A stretch of 64,000 bases of DNA from Escherichia coli (lineage in GTDB: Bacteria; Pseudomonadota; Gammaproteobacteria; Enterobacterales; Enterobacteriaceae): NCBI RefSeq assembly GCF_046105845.1, contig NZ_CP151004.1; one strand, 5' to 3'. The translations under genes were made by a program, and so were the position numbers. The notes under the pieces are model-generated. The model made no database searches. It was not told where the DNA came from and worked only from the letters and a program-made list of their open reading frames with translations. This document shows, one piece after another, positions 2,725 through 41,646 of the stretch. The first letter of the stretch is position 1. Every line of letters begins with the position of its first letter.

Positions 2725-3288
2725 GTGCCTGAACGCGGATTCACACTTCTGGAAATCATGCTGGTGATTTTCCTTATCGGCCTTGCCAGTGCGGGCGTGG
2801 TACAGACGTTTGCGACCGCTTCAGAGCCGCCTGCGAAAAAAGCGGCGCAGGATTTTCTGACTCGCTTTGCGCAGTTTAAGGACAGGGCAGTGATCGAAGG
2901 GCAAACACTCGGTGTACTAATCGATCCTCCTGGCTATCAGTTTATGCAGCGTCGTCACGGGCAGTGGTTGCCCGTTTCTGCGACCCGCTTATCGGCACAG
3001 GTTACGGTGCCAAAACAGGTGCAGATGCTGTTACAACCCGGCAGTGATATCTGGCAGAAGGAGTATGCGCTGGAACTGCAGCGTCGTCGCCTGACGCTGC
3101 ACGATATTGAACTGGAGCTGCAAAAAGAGGCGAAAAAGAAGACGCCGCAGATCCGTTTTTCGCCTTTTGAACCCGCCACGCCGTTTACGCTGCGCTTCTA
3201 CTCGGCGGCGCAAAACGCATGTTGGGCGGTAAAACTGGCACACGATGGCGTGTTATCCCTCAATCAATGTGATGAGAGGATGCCATGA
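2725..3288 (+). CDS. gspH: Type II secretion minor pseudopilin GspH
   Basis: GTG start; N-terminal GFTLLEIMLV prepilin motif. Confidence 0.85.
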   Translation: MPERGFTLLEIMLVIFLIGLASAGVVQTFATASEPPAKKAAQDFLTRFAQFKDRAVIEGQTLGVLIDPPGYQFMQRRHGQWLPVSATRLSAQVTVPKQVQMLLQPGSDIWQKEYALELQRRRLTLHDIELELQKEAKKKTPQIRFSPFEPATPFTLRFYSAAQNACWAVKLAHDGVLSLNQCDERMP

Positions 3289-5232: not shown

Positions 5233-6407
5233 GTTCCATGCTTGAGATTTTTATCCCGCTTTGCGCCTCCGATCCCATCCGTTGGCAGCACCGTACCACC
5301 GACGTGGAGCACGGCATCTGGTCTGACGTTGACAACGAACAGCTCCAGCAATGGCTGCAAACTGATGCGATTCGACTCTACATTCCCGGCGAATGGATCA
5401 GCGTCTGGCAGGTTGAACTGCCTGATATCCCCCGCAAGCAGATACCGACTATTCTGCCCGCCTTGCTGGAAGAAGAGCTGAACCAGGATATCGATGAACT
5501 GCATTTCGCCCCGTTGAAAATCGACCAGCAACTGGCAACCGTAGCAGTGATTCACCAACAGCATATGCGCAACATTGCGCAGTGGTTGCAGGCAAACGGC
5601 ATCACCCGCGCTACCGTCGCGCCGGACTGGATGTCCATTCCTTGTGGGTTTATGGCTGGCGATGCGCAACGGGTTATCTGCCGCATCGATGAATGCCGGG
5701 GATGGAGCGCCGGGCGGGCGCTGGCTCCGGTCATGTTCCGCGCCCAGCTCAATGAGCAGAATTTACCGCTTTCGCTAACCGTAGTCGGCATTGCACCGGA
5801 AGAGCTATCAGCATGGGCTGGCCCAGATGCTGAACGTCTGACCGTTACGGCTCTGCCCGCCATTACCACTTATGGCGAACCGGAAGGAAACCTGCTAACA
5901 GGGCCGTGGCAGCCCCGCGTCAGCTACCGAAAACAGTGGGCGCGCTGGCGGGTGATGATTCTGCCGATATTGCTGATTCTGGTTGCGCTGGCAGTGGAAC
6001 GGGGCGTGACGTTATGGAGCGTCAGCGAACAGGTGGCGCAAAGCCGCACCCAGGCGGAAAAAAAGTTCTTAACACTGTTCCCGGAGCAGAAGCTGATTGT
6101 GAATTTGCGTTCCCAGGTGACGATGGCGCTGAAAAAATATCGCCCGCAGGCCGACGATACCCGGCTGCTCGCTGAGTTGTCAGCGATAGCCAGCACCCTG
6201 AAATCAGCATCACTTTCCGACATCGAAATGCGTGGTTTCACCTTTGATCAAAAACGCCAGACGCTCCACCTTCAGTTGCAGGCCGCGAACTTTGCCAGCT
6301 TCGACAAACTGCGTAGCGCACTGGCGGCAGATTATGTTGTGCAACAGGACGCGTTACAGAAAGAGGGTGATGCGGTTTCCGGCGGCGTAACGTTGCGGAG
6401 GAAATAA
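5229..6407 (+). CDS. gspL: Type II secretion inner-membrane protein GspL, full length
   Basis: 392-aa ORF; GTG start overlapping gspK stop (alternative ATG at 5238); single TM segment mid-protein. Confidence 0.82.
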   Translation: MSSMLEIFIPLCASDPIRWQHRTTDVEHGIWSDVDNEQLQQWLQTDAIRLYIPGEWISVWQVELPDIPRKQIPTILPALLEEELNQDIDELHFAPLKIDQQLATVAVIHQQHMRNIAQWLQANGITRATVAPDWMSIPCGFMAGDAQRVICRIDECRGWSAGRALAPVMFRAQLNEQNLPLSLTVVGIAPEELSAWAGPDAERLTVTALPAITTYGEPEGNLLTGPWQPRVSYRKQWARWRVMILPILLILVALAVERGVTLWSVSEQVAQSRTQAEKKFLTLFPEQKLIVNLRSQVTMALKKYRPQADDTRLLAELSAIASTLKSASLSDIEMRGFTFDQKRQTLHLQLQAANFASFDKLRSALAADYVVQQDALQKEGDAVSGGVTLRRK

Positions 6408-6408
6408 C

Positions 6409-6945
6409 ATGTTACGCGATAAATTTATTCACTATTTTCAGCAATGGCGTGAACGCCAGTTAAGCCGTGGCGAACACTGGCTTACACAACACCTGGCGGG
6501 GCGTTCTCCGCGTGAAAAGGGCATGTTACTGGCAGCGGTGGTGTTCCTGTTTAGCGTCGGATATTACGTCCTCATCTGGCAGCCGTTGAGCGAACGGATA
6601 GAACAACAGGAGACGTTGTTGCAGCAGCTGGTGGCAATGAACACCCGACTGAAGAGCGCCGCGCCGGATATTATTGCGGCGCGAAAATCCGCCACAACAA
6701 CGCCTGCGCAGGTATCTCGGGTCATCAGTGACAGTGCTTCCGTGCACTCAGTGGTCATCAAGCGGATAGCCGAGCGCGGGGAGAATATTCAGGTCTGGAT
6801 AGAACCTGTGGTGTTTAATGACCTGCTGAATTGGCTTAATGCGCTGGATGAAAAGTATGCGCTGCGGGTGACACAAATTGATGTCAGTGCAGGTGAGAAG
6901 CCTGGGATGGTGAATGTGCAGCGGCTGGAGTTTGGAGGGGGGTAA
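6409..6945 (+). CDS. gspM: Type II secretion protein GspM
   Basis: 178-aa ORF with N-terminal TM helix; GGAG RBS; position matches K-12 yghD next to pheV. Confidence 0.82.
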   Translation: MLRDKFIHYFQQWRERQLSRGEHWLTQHLAGRSPREKGMLLAAVVFLFSVGYYVLIWQPLSERIEQQETLLQQLVAMNTRLKSAAPDIIAARKSATTTPAQVSRVISDSASVHSVVIKRIAERGENIQVWIEPVVFNDLLNWLNALDEKYALRVTQIDVSAGEKPGMVNVQRLEFGGG

Positions 6946-7055
6946 GTATCAGGAGATTAATATCAATAAAATTACTCTCGTTAACGTGGCGAGAGTAATT
7001 CCCCCAGACCTCATAAGCTAAGTTTTTTCGTGAAGGTTATTGCCAGATCCAAAAG

Positions 7056-33867: not shown

Positions 33868-34170
33868 ATTTAATATCACCTAAAGAGAATTTGGTTAGCT
33901 CAAACTGTTGTGTGGATTTTCTGTGGTAGCGGATCCTACCACGACTCTGCAGGTTAAAAACACTGGCAGTCTGAGTGTTAATCGGTATGGATGGATTAAC
34001 ATCTGGATGGCTATTTTAGGTCAGTTCTTCACCCAATTTCCACTTTTTTTTGAATCGTGTCTCATTCTGTTAAAAACGTGGCTGGAAATTTTTCCTGACA
34101 ATGCTGGCATTCTGCGTATTTATCTTTTGCAATTTTCTGCCATTGTGGGGTATAAAACGCGGCGCGCGGC

Positions 34171-34386
34171 TTAAATAAAAAGCACACGACGTTTCTTTCG
34201 TGTTGCCACTTCCAGCCGGGTTGAAATCAGAGTTTTGGCTTGTGGGTTCGTCTTAACAGGCGGCCGTGGAGGTGATACGAAATAATGAACCGTTGTCTGC
34301 TGCTTAACCTGTCTCACCGTTCTGGTGAAGATTCGTTCCCCGCACTCTGCATCTCTGCTTTGCATACCTGCCGATGTTATACCCAT
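34171..34386 (-). CDS. Small ORF, possibly yqgC
   Basis: 71-aa ORF in the metK-speA intergenic region; no other support. Confidence 0.2.
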
Positions 34387-34521
34387 CTCGGCGCTTCTCA
34401 GGATTCAAGAGCTGGTTACAGTTACTGAGGACTGAACAAGGGCGCTCTTGTAAAAACAAGAGTTTTCTCGTGGTTTCGCCGAACTGTCACACTTACGTTC
34501 GGTTATGTGCTTAATAATGTT

Positions 34522-34653
34522 ATGAAAAAGAAACCGGTTGCGCAGTTGGAGCGTCAGCATTCACTGCTGGAAAATCCATGTGCTTATGGGTTGTTATCGC
34601 AGTTCCAGGCTGCGATAGTCGTTAACTGTTTTACACTTAATAAAATAATTTGA
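34522..34653 (+). CDS. yqgB: Small acid-stress protein YqgB in the speA leader
   Basis: 43-codon [46 protein letters not shown] ending 8 nt before the speA ATG. Confidence 0.6.
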
Positions 34654-34661
34654 GGTTCGCT

Positions 34662-36638
34662 ATGTCTGACGACATGTCTATGGGTTTGCCTTCGTCAGCG
34701 GGCGAACACGGTGTACTACGCTCCATGCAGGAGGTTGCAATGAGCTCCCAGGAAGCCAGCAAGATGCTGCGTACTTACAATATTGCCTGGTGGGGCAATA
34801 ACTACTATGACGTTAACGAGCTGGGCCACATTAGCGTGTGCCCGGACCCGGACGTCCCGGAAGCTCGCGTCGATCTCGCGCAGTTAGTGAAAACTCGTGA
34901 AGCACAGGGCCAGCGTCTGCCTGCACTGTTCTGTTTCCCACAGATCCTGCAGCATCGTTTGCGTTCTATTAACGCCGCGTTCAAACGTGCGCGGGAATCC
35001 TACGGCTATAACGGCGATTACTTCCTCGTTTATCCGATCAAAGTTAACCAGCACCGCCGCGTGATTGAGTCCCTGATTCATTCGGGCGAACCGCTAGGCC
35101 TGGAAGCCGGTTCCAAAGCGGAGTTGATGGCGGTGCTGGCACATGCTGGCATGACCCGTAGCGTCATCGTCTGCAACGGTTATAAGGACCGCGAATATAT
35201 CCGCCTGGCATTAATTGGCGAGAAGATGGGCCACAAGGTCTATCTGGTCATTGAGAAGATGTCAGAAATTGCCATTGTGCTGGATGAAGCAGAACGTCTG
35301 AATGTCGTTCCTCGTCTGGGCGTGCGTGCGCGTCTGGCTTCGCAGGGCTCCGGTAAATGGCAGTCCTCCGGCGGGGAAAAATCGAAGTTCGGCCTGGCGG
35401 CGACTCAGGTACTGCAACTGGTTGAAACCCTGCGTGAAGCCGGGCGTCTCGACAGCCTGCAACTGCTGCACTTCCACCTCGGTTCGCAGATGGCGAATAT
35501 TCGCGATATCGCGACAGGCGTTCGTGAATCCGCGCGTTTCTATGTTGAGCTGCACAAGCTGGGCGTCAATATTCAGTGCTTCGACGTCGGCGGTGGTCTG
35601 GGCGTGGACTATGAAGGCACCCGTTCGCAGTCCGACTGTTCGGTGAACTACGGCCTCAATGAATACGCCAACAACATCATCTGGGCGATTGGTGATGCGT
35701 GTGAAGAAAATGGTCTGCCACATCCGACAGTAATCACCGAGTCGGGTCGTGCGGTGACTGCACATCACACCGTGCTGGTGTCGAATATCATCGGCGTGGA
35801 ACGTAACGAATACACGGTGCCGACTGCGCCTGCAGAAGACGCACCGCGCGCCCTGCAAAGCATGTGGGAAACCTGGCAGGAGATGCACGAACCGGGAACT
35901 CGCCGTTCTCTGCGTGAGTGGTTGCATGACAGCCAGATGGATCTGCACGATATTCATATCGGCTACTCTTCCGGCACCTTTAGCCTGCAAGAACGCGCAT
36001 GGGCTGAGCAGCTTTATTTGAGCATGTGCCATGAAGTGCAAAAGCAGCTGGATCCGCAAAACCGTGCTCATCGTCCGATTATCGACGAGCTGCAGGAACG
36101 TATGGCGGACAAAATGTACGTCAACTTCTCGCTGTTCCAGTCGATGCCGGATGCGTGGGGGATCGACCAGTTGTTCCCGGTTCTGCCGCTGGAAGGGTTG
36201 GATCAAGTGCCGGAACGTCGCGCTGTGCTGCTGGATATTACCTGTGACTCTGACGGTGCTATCGACCACTATATTGATGGTGATGGTATTGCCACGACAA
36301 TGCCAATGCCGGAGTACGATCCAGAGAATCCGCCGATGCTCGGTTTCTTTATGGTCGGCGCATATCAGGAGATCCTCGGCAATATGCACAACCTGTTCGG
36401 TGATACCGAAGCGGTTGACGTGTTCGTGTTCCCTGACGGTAGCGTAGAAGTAGAACTGTCTGACGAAGGCGATACCGTGGCGGACATGCTGCAATATGTA
36501 CAGCTCGATCCGAAAACGCTGTTAACCCAGTTCCGCGATCAAGTGAAGAAAACCGATCTTGATGCTGAACTGCAACAACAGTTCCTTGAAGAGTTCGAGG
36601 CAGGTTTGTACGGTTATACCTATCTTGAAGATGAATAA
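34662..36638 (+). CDS. speA: Biosynthetic arginine decarboxylase
   Basis: 658-aa product from [18 protein letters not shown]; track ORF starts at an upstream TTG. Confidence 0.95.
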
Positions 36639-36655
36639 TTAAGATTATTCCGCTG

Positions 36656-36696
36656 GCGGGTCGATTTATTTACGTAAATCGGCCCGCTTTCTTTTT
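36656..36696 (+). terminator. Rho-independent terminator of speA
   Basis: 13-bp stem GCGGGTCGATTTA/TAAATCGGCCCGC (one G-U) followed by TTTCTTTTT. Confidence 0.7.
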
Positions 36697-36783
36697 ATAT
36701 ATTCTTAAAAATAATTTAGCTGCTTTTCTTATTAAATAATCCCCCTACAATCGCTGCATTAATTAAATACAGAGGGAACGGTT

Positions 36784-37515
36784 ATGAAAAAAGGGAAAGT
36801 ACGTAGCGCGTTGATAGCATTAGCCGTGCTGCTGGCCGGTTGTTCCAGTAATGCGCAGTATAATAGCAGTGCATCGGGCAATGTCGGCACCGCCTGGGGT
36901 GGGGATGTGCACTCATCGGTTCAGGGCGTATCTGCTGAGCGAGCCTGGCGCGATCCGGCAGAGATGATCGTTATTAGTTATTCGACTAATGTTCCTTCCG
37001 GCTATGATCGCGTTTATAGCATTCGTATTAACGAACTGGAATATGCTATTCGCGATGGTAATTTTAATTCTCTACCTATTACGCGTGTTTATGATTCATC
37101 CAATAATGAACCACGCTATATTGTCCATGCCAGAGTCGGAATGAATTATCAATTATATGTCCGTAATTACAGTCGTAACACCAACTACGAGATCGTTGCT
37201 ACGGTTGATGGCCTGGATGTGCTGAACGGCAAGCAAGGTTCGCTGAATAACAACGGCTATATTGTGAATGCCGGAGATTCGTTAGCGATTAAAGGATTTC
37301 GCAAAGATAAACATACCGAAGCGGCTTTTCAGTTCGCCAACGTTGCTGATTCCTACGCAGCCAATTCGGCGCAAGGCGATGTGCGTAATACCGGGGTAAT
37401 CGGCTTTGCCGCCTTTGAATTACAAGGCTCGGCGCAAAACGCGATGCCGCCGTGCTCTGGACAAGCCTTTCCGGCAGATAACAATGGCTATGCGCCGCCA
37501 CCGTGTCGGAAATAG
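36784..37515 (+). CDS. Lipoprotein of unknown function, accessory
   Basis: 243-aa ORF; lipobox LLAGCSS; Asn/Tyr/Ser-rich mature domain; AT-rich (about 32% GC in a sampled 60 nt); own RBS and flanking terminators. Confidence 0.75.
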   Translation: MKKGKVRSALIALAVLLAGCSSNAQYNSSASGNVGTAWGGDVHSSVQGVSAERAWRDPAEMIVISYSTNVPSGYDRVYSIRINELEYAIRDGNFNSLPITRVYDSSNNEPRYIVHARVGMNYQLYVRNYSRNTNYEIVATVDGLDVLNGKQGSLNNNGYIVNAGDSLAIKGFRKDKHTEAAFQFANVADSYAANSAQGDVRNTGVIGFAAFELQGSAQNAMPPCSGQAFPADNNGYAPPPCRK

Positions 37516-37524
37516 CAACCTCGC

Positions 37525-37553
37525 TTGATGCCTCGTCCATTTAAGGCGATAAT
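37525..37553 (+). promoter_or_regulatory. Candidate sigma-70 promoter upstream of speB
   Basis: TTGATG, 17-nt spacer, GATAAT. Confidence 0.4.
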
Positions 37554-37580
37554 TAGCGCAAACTTGTGTTTCGCAAATCC

Positions 37581-37622
37581 AACCCTTCCTCGTCGGGCCT
37601 AACGACGCGGAAGGGTTTTTTT
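37581..37622 (+). terminator. Intrinsic-terminator-like hairpin 29 nt upstream of the speB start
   Basis: AACCCTTCC...GGAAGGGTT with inner stem CGTCG/CGACG, followed by TTTTTTT. Confidence 0.65.
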
Positions 37623-37650
37623 ATATCGACTTTGTAATAGGAGTCCATCC

Positions 37651-38571
37651 ATGAGCACCTTAGGTCATCAATACGATAACTCACTGGTTTCCAACGCCTT
37701 TGGTTTTTTACGCCTGCCGATGAACTTCCAGCCGTATGACAGCGATGCAGACTGGGTGATTACTGGCGTGCCGTTCGATATGGCCACTTCTGGTCGTGCG
37801 GGTGGTCGTCACGGTCCGGCAGCTATTCGTCAGGTTTCGACGAATCTGGCCTGGGAACACAACCGCTTCCCGTGGAATTTCGACATGCGTGAGCGTCTGA
37901 ACGTGGTGGACTGCGGCGATCTGGTATATGCCTTCGGCGATGCCCGTGAGATGAGCGAAAAACTGCAGGCACACGCCGAGAAGCTGCTGGCTGCCGGTAA
38001 GCGTATGCTCTCCTTCGGTGGTGACCACTTTGTTACGTTGCCGCTGCTGCGTGCACATGCGAAGCATTTCGGCAAAATGGCGCTGGTACACTTTGATGCC
38101 CACACCGATACCTACGCTAACGGTTGTGAATTTGACCACGGCACCATGTTCTATACCGCGCCGAAAGAAGGTCTGATCGACCCGAATCATTCCGTGCAGA
38201 TTGGTATTCGTACTGAGTTCGATAAAGACAACGGCTTTACCGTGCTGGACGCCTGCCAGGTGAACGATCGCAGCGTGGATGACGTTATCGCTCAGGTGAA
38301 ACAGATTGTAGGTGATATGCCGGTTTACCTGACTTTTGATATCGACTGCCTGGATCCTGCTTTCGCGCCGGGAACTGGTACGCCGGTGATTGGCGGCCTG
38401 ACCTCCGATCGCGCCATTAAACTGGTACGCGGCCTGAAAGATCTCAACATCGTTGGGATGGACGTAGTGGAAGTGGCTCCGGCATACGATCAGTCGGAAA
38501 TCACCGCTCTGGCTGCGGCGACGCTGGCGCTGGAGATGCTGTATATCCAGGCGGCGAAAAAGGGCGAGTAA
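37651..38571 (+). CDS. speB: Agmatinase
   Basis: 306-aa ORF; Mn-binding His/Asp motifs (GGDHF, DAHTD, DIDCLDP). Confidence 0.95.
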
Positions 38572-38607
38572 GCGCCGGATAAGATGCGTTATGCGTCAAA
38601 TCCGGCG
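38572..38607. repeat. REP-like palindromic unit between convergent speB and loiP
   Basis: GCGCCGGATAAGATGCGTTATGCGTCAAATCCGGCG; ends CGCCGGAT/ATCCGGCG are complementary. Confidence 0.5.
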
Positions 38608-38618
38608 TAATAAAATGC

Positions 38619-39377
38619 TTACTTAATTCCATCCGCGCTCATACGATCGCGAATATGCTGGGCGCGTTCGGCGGATGCAGGATGGTCGTCAAACATTGAG
38701 CTTTGGCGGCCTTCTTCCAGTTTCGCCAGTTTTTCAAAGCTGGTGGCAAGACCTGCCGGGCTGATGCCGCGTTGACGCAGAAGATCGTAAGAATAATCAT
38801 CGGCTTCTGCTTCCTGGCGCTGGGAGAATTGCGAATTAACTAATTTCTCGCCCAGATCACCGAGTTGTGATTGAGATAAACTGCCGACAATCCCGCCCGC
38901 AGAGGCCGCAGCTACTCGCACGGCATTTGTACCAAGTGCCACCTGCATCCCTTTTTTCACATGGCCTAACGCCACGTGCCCCATTTCGTGACCGATCACC
39001 GCTTCGACTTCGTTATCCGTCATCATATCCATCAGCCCGCTATAGACGCGGATACAGCCGTTAGCCATTGCAAAGGCGTTCACATCCTTCGCCATATACA
39101 CTTTGTAATTCACCGGCTGACCGTTGATATTGTTGCCTAGCGCATTGGCAATAGTTGTCAGACGTTTAGCGTATTCGCTATTGGCTGGCGCAATCGTCGC
39201 CTTGCTGTCCATCTCCTGACATGCCTGATCGCTCAGGGTTTTCACCTGCGCATCACTCAAACTGTAAGCCTGAAAAGCTTCCGCTCCTGATGAGAGCAGT
39301 CCGTTGGAGTCCATATTCTGGCAACCGGTCAGTACCGTTGCCACGCTCATTGCTACCAATAAGGCGCGAATTTTCAT
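38619..39377 (-). CDS. loiP: Outer-membrane M48 metalloprotease LoiP (YggG)
   Basis: 252-aa product from MKIRALLVAMS; lipobox LTGCQ; HEMGH zinc motif. Confidence 0.92.
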   Translation of the reverse strand: MKIRALLVAMSVATVLTGCQNMDSNGLLSSGAEAFQAYSLSDAQVKTLSDQACQEMDSKATIAPANSEYAKRLTTIANALGNNINGQPVNYKVYMAKDVNAFAMANGCIRVYSGLMDMMTDNEVEAVIGHEMGHVALGHVKKGMQVALGTNAVRVAAASAGGIVGSLSQSQLGDLGEKLVNSQFSQRQEAEADDYSYDLLRQRGISPAGLATSFEKLAKLEEGRQSSMFDDHPASAERAQHIRDRMSADGIK

Positions 39378-39654
39378 GTTTTCTCTTCCGCACAAGGTCA
39401 GGATTATTCTAAAAATGCGCCGTTTGCAGGTGAATCGACGCTCAGTCTCAGTATAAGGAAAAGCGCAGCGGACGGGCGAGCAGATTGCGCAACATGCGAG
39501 CATGATCCAGAGATTTCTGAAGCGGCAAAAGGATGTTCCATGTACATGACGCGCGGCTTGCGGTAAATTGTTGGCAAATTTTCCGGCGTAGCCCAAAACG
39601 CGCTGTCGTCAAGTCGTTAAGGGCGTGCCCTTCATCATCCGATCTGGAGTCAAA

Positions 39655-41646
39655 ATGTCCTCACGTAAAGAGCTTGCCAATGCTATTCGTGCGCTGAGCA
39701 TGGACGCAGTACAGAAAGCCAAATCCGGTCACCCGGGTGCCCCTATGGGGATGGCTGACATTGCCGAAGTCCTGTGGCGTGATTTCCTGAAACACAACCC
39801 GCAGAATCCGTCCTGGGCTGACCGTGACCGCTTCGTGCTGTCCAACGGCCACGGCTCCATGCTGATCTACAGCCTGCTGCACCTCACCGGTTACGATCTG
39901 CCGATGGAAGAACTGAAAAACTTCCGTCAGCTGCATTCCAAAACGCCGGGCCACCCGGAAGTGGGCTACACCGCAGGTGTGGAAACCACTACTGGTCCGC
40001 TGGGTCAGGGTATTGCCAACGCAGTCGGTATGGCGATTGCAGAAAAAACGCTGGCGGCGCAGTTTAACCGTCCGGGCCACGACATTGTCGACCACTACAC
40101 CTACGCCTTCATGGGTGACGGCTGCATGATGGAAGGCATCTCCCACGAAGTTTGCTCTCTGGCGGGTACGCTGAAGCTGGGTAAACTGATTGCGTTCTAC
40201 GATGACAACGGTATCTCTATCGATGGTCACGTTGAAGGCTGGTTCACCGACGACACCGCAATGCGTTTCGAAGCTTACGGCTGGCACGTTATTCGCGGCA
40301 TCGACGGTCATGACGCGGCATCCATCAAACGCGCAGTAGAAGAAGCGCGCGCAGTGACTGACAAACCGTCCCTGCTGATGTGCAAAACCATTATCGGTTT
40401 CGGTTCACCGAACAAAGCCGGTACGCACGACTCCCACGGTGCGCCGCTGGGCGACGCTGAAATCGCCCTGACCCGCGAACAGCTGGGCTGGAAATATGCA
40501 CCGTTCGAAATCCCGTCTGAAATCTATGCTCAGTGGGATGCGAAAGAAGCAGGCCAGGCGAAAGAATCCGCATGGAACGAGAAATTCGCTGCTTACGCGA
40601 AAGCTTATCCGCAGGAAGCCGCTGAATTTACCCGCCGTATGAAAGGCGAAATGCCGTCTGACTTCGACGCCAAAGCGAAAGAGTTCATCGCTAAACTGCA
40701 GGCTAATCCGGCGAAAATCGCCAGCCGTAAAGCGTCTCAGAATGCGATTGAAGCGTTCGGTCCGCTGTTGCCGGAATTCCTCGGCGGCTCTGCTGACCTG
40801 GCACCGTCTAACCTGACCCTGTGGTCTGGTTCTAAAGCAATTAACGAAGATGCTGCGGGTAACTACATCCACTACGGTGTTCGCGAGTTCGGTATGACCG
40901 CGATTGCTAACGGTATCTCCCTGCACGGTGGTTTCCTGCCGTACACCTCCACCTTCCTGATGTTCGTGGAATACGCACGTAACGCCGTACGTATGGCTGC
41001 GCTGATGAAACAGCGTCAGGTGATGGTTTACACCCACGACTCCATCGGTCTGGGCGAAGATGGCCCGACTCACCAGCCGGTTGAGCAGGTCGCTTCACTG
41101 CGCGTGACCCCGAACATGTCCACATGGCGTCCGTGTGACCAGGTTGAATCCGCGGTCGCGTGGAAATACGGCGTTGAGCGTCAAGACGGCCCGACTGCGC
41201 TTATCCTCTCCCGTCAGAACCTGGCGCAGCAGGAGCGTACTGAAGAGCAGCTGGCAAACATCGCGCGCGGTGGTTATGTGCTGAAAGACTGTGCCGGTCA
41301 GCCGGAACTGATTTTCATCGCGACCGGTTCTGAAGTTGAACTGGCGGTTGCTGCCTACGAAAAACTGACTGCCGAAGGCGTGAAGGCGCGCGTGGTTTCC
41401 ATGCCGTCTACCGATGCATTCGACAAGCAGGATGCGGCTTACCGTGAATCCGTACTGCCGAAAGCGGTTACTGCACGCGTTGCGGTAGAAGCGGGTATTG
41501 CTGACTACTGGTACAAGTATGTTGGCCTGAACGGCGCTATCGTCGGCATGACCACCTTTGGTGAATCTGCTCCGGCAGAGCTGCTGTTTGAAGAGTTCGG
41601 TTTCACCGTTGATAACGTTGTTGCGAAAGCCAAAGCGCTGCTGTAA
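39655..41646 (+). CDS. tktA: Transketolase 1
   Basis: 663-aa product from [20 protein letters not shown]. Confidence 0.96.

Follow-up and report, generated by a model that had tools for sequence, protein, structure and literature searches.

We analyzed a 64,000-nucleotide stretch of Escherichia coli DNA (assembly GCF_046105845.1, contig NZ_CP151004.1; hereafter the window) in which an open reading frame (ORF) predicted to encode a lipoprotein lies between speA and speB. The gene order is metK (minus strand), yqgD, yqgG, yqgB, speA (ending at 36638), the ORF, speB (37651-38571), loiP (minus strand) and tkt, with the ORF on the same plus strand as speA and speB. Very probably, the ORF is a chromosomal, vertically inherited, non-essential lipoprotein gene whose place is between speA and speB. 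The features of the locus are as follows.

36639..37573, no strand assigned: tract differing from the K-12-type allele; speA and speB are 1,012 bp apart in the window and 137 bp apart in K-12 (net -875 bp), with near-identity again from about 37574
36655..36699, plus strand: speA intrinsic terminator, a 15-bp stem with a 4-nt loop (36655-36688) followed by TTTCTTTTTAT, from a terminator scan and RNA folding
36700..36783, plus strand: AT-rich region 5' of the ORF, with a -10-like TACAAT (36746-36751), a weak -35 TTTTCT (about 36724-36729) and GAGGG
36772-36776, plus strand: Shine-Dalgarno sequence GAGGG, 7 nt 5' of the ORF ATG
36784..37515, plus strand: the lipoprotein ORF, ATG start, TAG stop, 243 residues
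36784..36843, plus strand: signal peptide and lipobox, residues 1-20, MKKGKVRSALIALAVLLAGC followed by SS, from the translation
36844..36882, plus strand: flexible tether, residues 21-33, of low complexity, differing in length among homologues, with gap-rich, unconserved columns and a predicted local distance difference test score (pLDDT) below 50 at residues 19-29
36883..37422, plus strand: all-beta globular domain, residues 34-213, from an AlphaFold2 model and conserved columns
37423..37515, plus strand: C-terminal tail, residues 214-243, and stop; a low-confidence linker (pLDDT 43-69), then an AFPxD..GYAPPP motif
37525..37553, plus strand: promoter-like element 5' of speB, TTGATG-17-GATAAT, from a promoter scan
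37581..37622, plus strand: second terminator, a hairpin (37581-37617) with stem CCCTTCC/GGAAGGG and inner stem CGTCG/CGACG running into T7, from RNA folding

The N-terminus of the ORF product, MKKGKVRSALIALAVLLA, has the basic n-region and hydrophobic core of a lipoprotein signal peptide, with a helix modeled at residues 7-17. It leads into the lipobox L-A-G-C at residues 17-20, in which conservation of Cys20 (codon 36841-36843) reaches at least 90% in two alignments, one of 32 homologues and one of 50. The product appears to be a Sec-exported lipoprotein, predicted to be lipidated at Cys20. The residue at +2 is Ser21, not Asp, and under the +2 rule a serine at this position predicts Lol-dependent sorting to the outer membrane. 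The mature protein is 10.8% Asn, 9.9% Ser and 6.3% Tyr, compared with 3.5, 5.5 and 3.4% in the flanking enzymes. Its gene has a GC content of 0.486 and a third-position GC content (GC3) of 0.463, compared with 0.545 and 0.619 for speA and 0.550 and 0.622 for speB. A preliminary description of the sequence had claimed a 243-residue ORF with an LLAGC lipobox, an Asn/Tyr/Ser-rich mature part, an AT-rich composition and bracketing by the speA terminator and a second terminator, and on each of these points the analysis agrees with it.

To see how widely E. coli carries the gene, we compared positions 36640-37650 by megablast with 5,426 complete E. coli genomes. The full ORF tract is present in 3,550 of them (65%), and the others match its last 77 nt only. 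A reciprocal search with the junction from strain J53, a K-12 derivative, found an uninterrupted K-12-type junction in 1,865 of the 5,426 (approximately 34%), with 98.8-100% identity in the sampled rows. Complete genomes therefore sort into two clean haplotypes, plus roughly ten with neither form intact, for example through a disruption associated with insertion sequence (IS) IS1. The speA-speB spacer of J53 is 137 bp long and holds no ORF, which matches the short K-12 spacer of the preliminary description, and the pattern of short matches seen for K-12 recurs in a strain whose name, Nico21(DE3), is of the BL21 type. The labels in the hit table place 536, EC958, JJ1887, O157:H7, O104:H4 and O113:H21 among the ORF carriers. 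The ORF-less allele is now fixed in approximately 34% of complete E. coli genomes, K-12 and B strains included.

The distribution of the gene beyond E. coli indicates which of the two forms is older. We surveyed one genome per species, giving 260 loci of which 80 were kept, and read synteny by tblastn with the SpeA, SpeB, LoiP, MetK and Tkt proteins of the window. The order speA-ORF-speB is found in two cryptic Escherichia clades, E. whittamii and one divergent E. coli, and again in three Citrobacter, Kluyvera, Klebsiella spallanzanii, Intestinirhabdus, Phytobacter, Kosakonia, Entomohabitans and an Enterobacter. The E. albertii locus ends upstream of the ORF, leaving only ORF-speB visible, and in Salmonella the ORF comes immediately after speA, with a GntR/mannitol-dehydrogenase block downstream of it. 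Identity of the lipoprotein drops from 95% to 53% across these genera, while that of SpeA stays at 94-99%. Of eight genera measured, six (Citrobacter, Kluyvera, Klebsiella, Phytobacter, Kosakonia and Salmonella) have a lower GC content in the ORF than in speA and speB. Because the speA-ORF(-speB) order recurs across Enterobacteriaceae, we take the ORF to be ancestral at this site and the K-12 form to be derived. That the gene was already here in the ancestor of Escherichia, Salmonella, Citrobacter, Klebsiella, Kluyvera, Kosakonia and their relatives is well supported by these comparisons.

Since there are two clean haplotypes and the K-12-type junction is 98.8-100% identical wherever sampled, the genome comparison points to a single loss of the lipoprotein gene in K-12-type lineages. 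One deletion or replacement event would have taken the speA terminator, the ORF promoter and the ORF together. The K-12-type allele is not a clean excision, however, and to call it a simple deletion is an oversimplification that counts against our account of the locus. In this allele, divergence from all ORF-bearing Escherichia reaches approximately 40% over the 57 nt after the speA stop (GTCCTGTGTTACTTGAATCCGCTTAATTTAGCGGTGATAATCCGCCACAATTTATTGTG), together with two synonymous sites within the final 19 nt of speA (window 36620-36638 and 37516-37573 compared with 2922-3000 of the K-12 record, L002). The ORF-bearing Escherichia, E. albertii included, are nearly identical to one another across that tract, whereas the remainder of speA and speB in the K-12-type allele differs by the usual 2-3%. 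The ORF-less tract may be a short import from a species that lacks the ORF. We also considered the K-12 spacer as a recombinant between repeats flanking the ORF, and rejected this origin because the alignments were no better than those of shuffled sequences (17 of 500 and 85 of 500 scored as well).

"Accessory", the term used in the preliminary description, holds in the pan-genome sense, given a gene carried by 65% of complete E. coli genomes. It fails in the sense of something added to the strain, as the gene is ancestral across Enterobacteriaceae and was lost in K-12-type lineages. The preliminary description had staked its case on two further points, absence of the ORF from this position in K-12 and purifying selection among its orthologues. 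The ORF is absent from K-12, and its orthologues are under constraint.

Among 11 Escherichia alleles, the mean ratio of nonsynonymous to synonymous substitution rates (dN/dS, Nei-Gojobori) is 0.078, compared with 0.006 for speA and speB. Against cryptic-clade orthologues at dS of approximately 0.3, the ratio is 0.07-0.09. Within E. coli it is 0.23-0.34 at small distances, as is usual there, and 0.10 against the near-identical L001 allele. The reading frame and the 243-residue length are kept in all intact orthologues. By these substitution patterns, the lipoprotein gene is functional and under purifying selection, but less constrained than its neighbors.

Constraint has not prevented repeated inactivation. 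One allele, with 448 member sequences, is cut at codon 167, and its contig ends in GGAAGGTGCGAACAAGTCCCTGATA, which we take to be the terminal repeat at an IS5 end. One strain has an IS1-associated disruption and rearrangement of the lipoprotein gene, and a frameshifted Salmonella allele has 132 members (records L091 3001-3527 and L003 3248-4434; proteins P0025 and P0051). Because IS1-disrupted, codon-167-cut and frameshifted alleles exist besides the K-12 loss, we consider the gene dispensable.

The lipoprotein belongs to a large family. A phmmer search of 1.84 billion representative sequences returned 2,908 matches at E<=1e-3 and 859 at E<=1e-10, and a separate search returned 290 homologues at E<=1e-3. 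Together with the dN/dS values, these numbers are far beyond those of a chance ORF. Named members come from Enterobacterales, Neisseria, Kingella, Pseudomonas, Acinetobacter, Moraxella, Burkholderia, Ralstonia, Variovorax, Comamonas, Paracoccus, Labilithrix and others. The preliminary description did not recognize the protein family, and indeed no Pfam or NCBIfam model describes it. Pfam-A gave no match at E<=10 for the lipoprotein and none for 25 long distant relatives, and NCBIfam gave only signal-peptide-level matches to lipoprotein models. No family among the PADLOC defense-system models matched at E<=1, and a profile search of the PDB had no match. Foldseek against AFDB50 returned only the protein's own family, all of them uncharacterized, unnamed lipoproteins, and in a second profile-based protein search for annotated remote relatives, nearly all of the 120 proteins listed were unannotated.

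An AlphaFold2 model built from 32 sequences (pLDDT 82; predicted template modeling score 0.78) places 13 strands in an all-beta domain at residues 34-213, where the mean pLDDT of ten-residue blocks is mostly 87-97. This globular domain comprises a "GTxWGE" module (approximately residues 34-70) and a conserved core (approximately residues 85-213) with the motifs YxL..RNxS..YEIVATVDGLDV.xG, GY, IxGFRK, AAFxF, YA and NxGVIGxAxF. Conserved core positions are Y122, N128, E136, VDGLDV at 141-146, G158-Y159, G171-F172-R173-K174, Y191, N202 and GVIG. In total, the alignments contain 20 invariant and approximately 35 near-invariant columns, distributed over the GTxWGE module, the core and the C-terminal AFPxD..YAPPP. 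Conserved columns of the tail are A228, F229, P230, Y236, A237, P239 and P240; Cys224 and Cys241 occur in enterobacterial sequences and a few others of the alignment and probably form a disulfide in that branch. In one distant relative (P0260) the core comes first and a "GLGTEFGE" module follows, a circular permutation, and in another (P0215) core and module are duplicated in tandem. Because their order can be swapped and the pair repeated, we regard the core and GTxWGE as separable modules that pack together.

Two eukaryotic domains may resemble this model. Judged by the predicted fold, the closest relative would be a domain that also lacks a known function, the fungal Pfam domain DUF7918; the lipoprotein does not match its hidden Markov model (HMM). 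Some of the matching fungal DUF7918-related proteins carry RING-type or GRF-type fusions, and we presume, from sequences not inspected, that they have no lipobox, GTxWGE module or AFPxD..YAPPP tail. No paper mentioning DUF7918 was found. The MATH/TRAF domain of USP7/HAUSP, SPOP and TRAF scores weakly, at 2-11% identity and without an HMM match. MATH proteins belong to the eukaryotic cytosol, and the resemblance may go no further than a generic sandwich topology.

Linkage to spe genes is confined to Enterobacteriaceae: approximately 60 other homologue loci have neither speA nor speB within 6 kb. When the neighbors of the 80 loci were clustered, none was conserved across genera. Outside Enterobacteriaceae, the neighbors include recO-like, metJ-like, threonyl-tRNA synthetase, S-adenosylhomocysteine hydrolase, LysR, methyl-accepting chemotaxis protein and autotransporter genes. 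At 20 Comamonadaceae loci the homologue lies between hisD and hisC, again inside a biosynthetic gene pair (among them L039, L041, L043, L046, L047, L052-L056, L059, L061, L062, L064, L076, L077, L080 and L081; approximately positions 6001-7050 in most). At 17 Variovorax/Xenophilus loci it is directly followed by a gene for a secreted protein of approximately 120 residues that matches Pfam Rap1a (E 3e-5), an immunity family for amidases of the type VI secretion system (T6SS). This adjacency is the only functional hint that we have, and it is confined to one clade. A WapI-like immunity match in one neighbor set was a single instance and was set aside as coincidence; we think its source may be a convergent 143-residue ORF in Propionivibrio.

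Two records stand apart from the rest of the survey. "Chryseobacterium sp. 18061" and "Citrobacter sp. 18056" (L013 and L014, 1141-10513) have identical ORF maps over 12.7 kb, suggesting contamination or mislabeling. Both carry a 63%-identical lipoprotein copy away from speA and speB, 40 nt 3' of four co-oriented genes, two of which presumably encode a hydrolase-methyltransferase fusion and a PAP2-like membrane protein. Two other neighbors at this locus, including the 440-residue ORF just upstream of the copy, have no NCBIfam match. We also considered a plasmid origin for the gene and rejected it. Copies in the plasmid database mostly turn up in mislabeled chromosomes or replicons of very large size, for instance an E. 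coli record of 4.9 Mb and Burkholderia replicons spanning approximately 0.85-3.2 Mb, and all are classed as non-mobilizable.

The flanking hairpins bear on how the gene is transcribed. The speA hairpin has a predicted folding free energy of -23.4 kcal/mol (z -4.5; matched by none of 200 shuffled sequences). An alignment judged by eye shows it retained across ten genera, both arms having changed at many positions; the K-12-type allele does not have it. For the second hairpin the values are -26.4 kcal/mol and z -4.6 (again none of 200), and 28 nt separate its T7 from the ATG of speB. K-12, where speA directly precedes it, has the identical hairpin, which is nearly invariant, including the loop (TCGTCGGGCCTAACGACG), in Escherichia, Citrobacter, Kluyvera, Klebsiella, Entomohabitans and Enterobacter; other hairpins take its place in Intestinirhabdus and in Phytobacter/Kosakonia. 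Because strong predicted terminators lie on both sides, the upstream one conserved with changes on both arms, we argue that the ORF would be its own transcription unit between speA and speB. A speAB operon co-transcribed through a terminator-free interval does not fit this arrangement, as both predicted hairpins (36655-36688 and 37581-37617) are followed by T-runs.

A promoter for the ORF probably lies around TACAAT at 36746-36751. The -10-like element (TACAAT, TACTAT or TATTAT) holds its position in Escherichia, Salmonella, Citrobacter, Klebsiella and Kluyvera, and the whole speA-ORF spacer (36639-36783) has a GC content of 0.34. A consensus promoter scan called none in the region upstream of the ORF (36700-36783). 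The promoter-like element 5' of speB is retained in the K-12-type allele as TTGAAT..GATAAT and is conserved as CTTGAAG..GGCGATAAT in Citrobacter, Kluyvera, Klebsiella and Enterobacter. The element and the hairpin of the speB leader are seen together at 37525-37622 of the window and in L002, L008-L012, L015, L019 and L021. This order, promoter and then terminator, could act as a speB attenuator. An Rfam scan of 34000-39800 found no RNA family, the speB-leader hairpin included.

Variation at the locus continues downstream. The speB-loiP spacer is 47 nt in the window (38572-38618), 142 nt in the near-identical strain AF39 (L001 4933-5074) and 205 nt in K-12 (L002 3999-4203). In some strains, dagR rather than loiP follows speB (L086 and L003, downstream of speB).

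What the protein does can be proposed only tentatively. The precursor would be lipidated at Cys20 through Lgt, LspA and Lnt, and, with Ser rather than Asp at +2, the Lol system would carry it to the outer membrane. There, a tether of approximately 13 residues would hold a rigid beta-sandwich of approximately 180 residues, whose conserved polar and aromatic set (R53, Y66, Y122, N128, E136, D142, D145, Y159, R173, K174, Y191 and N202) may mark a binding module for an envelope ligand, whether protein, peptide or cell-wall glycan. Such a module could serve as a protective binder or an inhibitor. The AFPxD..YAPPP tail, probably stapled by the Cys224-Cys241 disulfide in enterobacteria, may add to or gate the site. 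That the lipoprotein is a binder rather than a metabolic enzyme is a possibility we would put forward without leaning on it. Several points weigh against our account of the protein. The outer-membrane placement is a prediction of the +2 rule only, no family model matches the protein, and a literature search found no experiment or paper bearing on its function. Many invariant charged residues (E136, D142 and R173) would fit an enzyme too. Linkage to speA, held across at least eleven genera, could mean something, though general synteny explains it.

Other explanations concern where the ORF came from and whether it is a gene at all. If it were a horizontally acquired islet of non-K-12 strains, K-12 would have the ancestral empty site. 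Its base composition (GC 0.486 against 0.55 and GC3 0.46 against 0.62 in the flanks), its variable presence in E. coli, the patchiness of homologues across Proteobacteria and the 63%-identical copy in another context in one Citrobacter assembly are what such an islet might show. Yet the gene keeps the same site and orientation in ten further enterobacterial genera, Salmonella included, and in all sampled non-coli Escherichia, its divergence tracks taxonomic distance and the K-12-type junction is essentially one allele. Low GC is common to the orthologues, so it is not a mark of recent horizontal transfer. A genomic island would leave the site empty in sister species and bring mobility genes, tRNA genes or repeats; instead, the ORF is at the site in 11 genera. 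No mobility genes flank it at the standard locus, its borders have no IS elements, integrases, tRNA genes, direct repeats or significant flanking repeat, and mobile plasmids do not carry it. This all but excludes horizontal insertion, and we find the islet reading hardly credible. We give practically no weight to the idea of a decaying or spurious reading frame without function. The annotation "hypothetical protein" and the loss or disruption of the ORF in several lineages would suit it, but a dN/dS of 0.078 over 11 alleles with frame and length intact, 20 invariant and approximately 35 near-invariant columns down to 36% identity and a confident AlphaFold model would not.

Two further explanations accept a vertically inherited functional gene and differ from the general binder over its role. 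The position between speA and speB, held across at least ten genera in the orientation of both, invites the view that the lipoprotein belongs to the arginine decarboxylase-agmatinase pathway, as an envelope anchor or partner of SpeA or by binding agmatine or polyamines; it would then be expressed together with speA and speB. SpeA was reported as envelope-associated in older work, and leaky terminators would make read-through from speA possible. The terminators predicted on both sides are strong, however, and one third of E. coli do without the gene, including the strains in which the pathway was defined. In Providencia, Proteus, Serratia, Gilliamella, Neisseria, Pseudomonas, Burkholderia, Variovorax and Paracoccus the homologues lie away from spe genes, the Comamonadaceae homologue sits instead between hisD and hisC, and the whole metK-speA-speB-loiP-tkt block is syntenic anyway. 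We judge a role in the polyamine pathway very unlikely. Improbable, but worth stating, is a periplasmic immunity or inhibitor protein directed against an exogenous cell-wall-degrading enzyme, such as a T6SS amidase, a glycosidase effector or lysozyme. A stand-alone, dispensable, patchy lipoprotein facing the periplasm, evolving approximately 13 times faster (dN/dS) than its neighbors and carrying a conserved polar surface set on a beta-sandwich, would fit this role, as would the Rap1a-family gene right after the homologue in Variovorax/Xenophilus. The lysozyme inhibitors MliC and PliG and the T6SS immunity lipoproteins Tai/Tsi are similar in lipobox export and anchoring and in being small, single-domain beta proteins from monocistronic, non-essential genes with no conserved neighbors. 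However, the lipoprotein matches none of them, nor any known immunity or inhibitor family, in sequence or fold, and it is not known to inhibit anything. No effector gene is nearby in any locus examined, the Rap1a adjacency occurs in one clade only, and orphan immunity genes are not usually retained vertically at one locus for so long.

A bolder composite reading would make the protein the founding member of a large lipoprotein family (approximately 2,900 clusters at 50% identity, mostly from Proteobacteria and with no Pfam model), its beta-sandwich homologous to DUF7918, serving in the periplasm as a binder or immunity factor against enzymes that target the cell wall and unstudied as K-12 and B deleted the gene. 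Taken as a whole, we regard this as a long shot.

Returning to the vertically inherited lipoprotein gene, its product is already catalogued as a hypothetical lipoprotein of the E. coli shell genome and does not represent a new type of system. WP_000715525.1, the protein of L001, shares 99.6% identity with that of the window, whose exact sequence is already public. The locus tags ECs3813 and c3523 probably belong to this gene. Other alleles (WP_0007589xx) are 97-99% identical, and the gene is annotated at the same locus in thousands of genomes. RefSeq and UniProt names for these proteins ("hypothetical protein", "membrane protein", "lipoprotein", "Outer membrane lipoprotein") are generic and have no functional content. 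Shell genes for hypothetical lipoproteins are common, so a specialist would not be surprised by one more, and the gene makes no open question testable. The family is nevertheless big enough for a Pfam entry, and the predicted fold would link it to a fungal domain of which as little is known. In ORF-bearing strains speA has a terminator of its own, whereas in K-12 speA runs into the speB leader, a difference that could affect read-through into speB. The locus also marks a gap left by the model strains: approximately two-thirds of E. coli, Salmonella and many enteric genera have the gene, while K-12 and a BL21-type strain do not.

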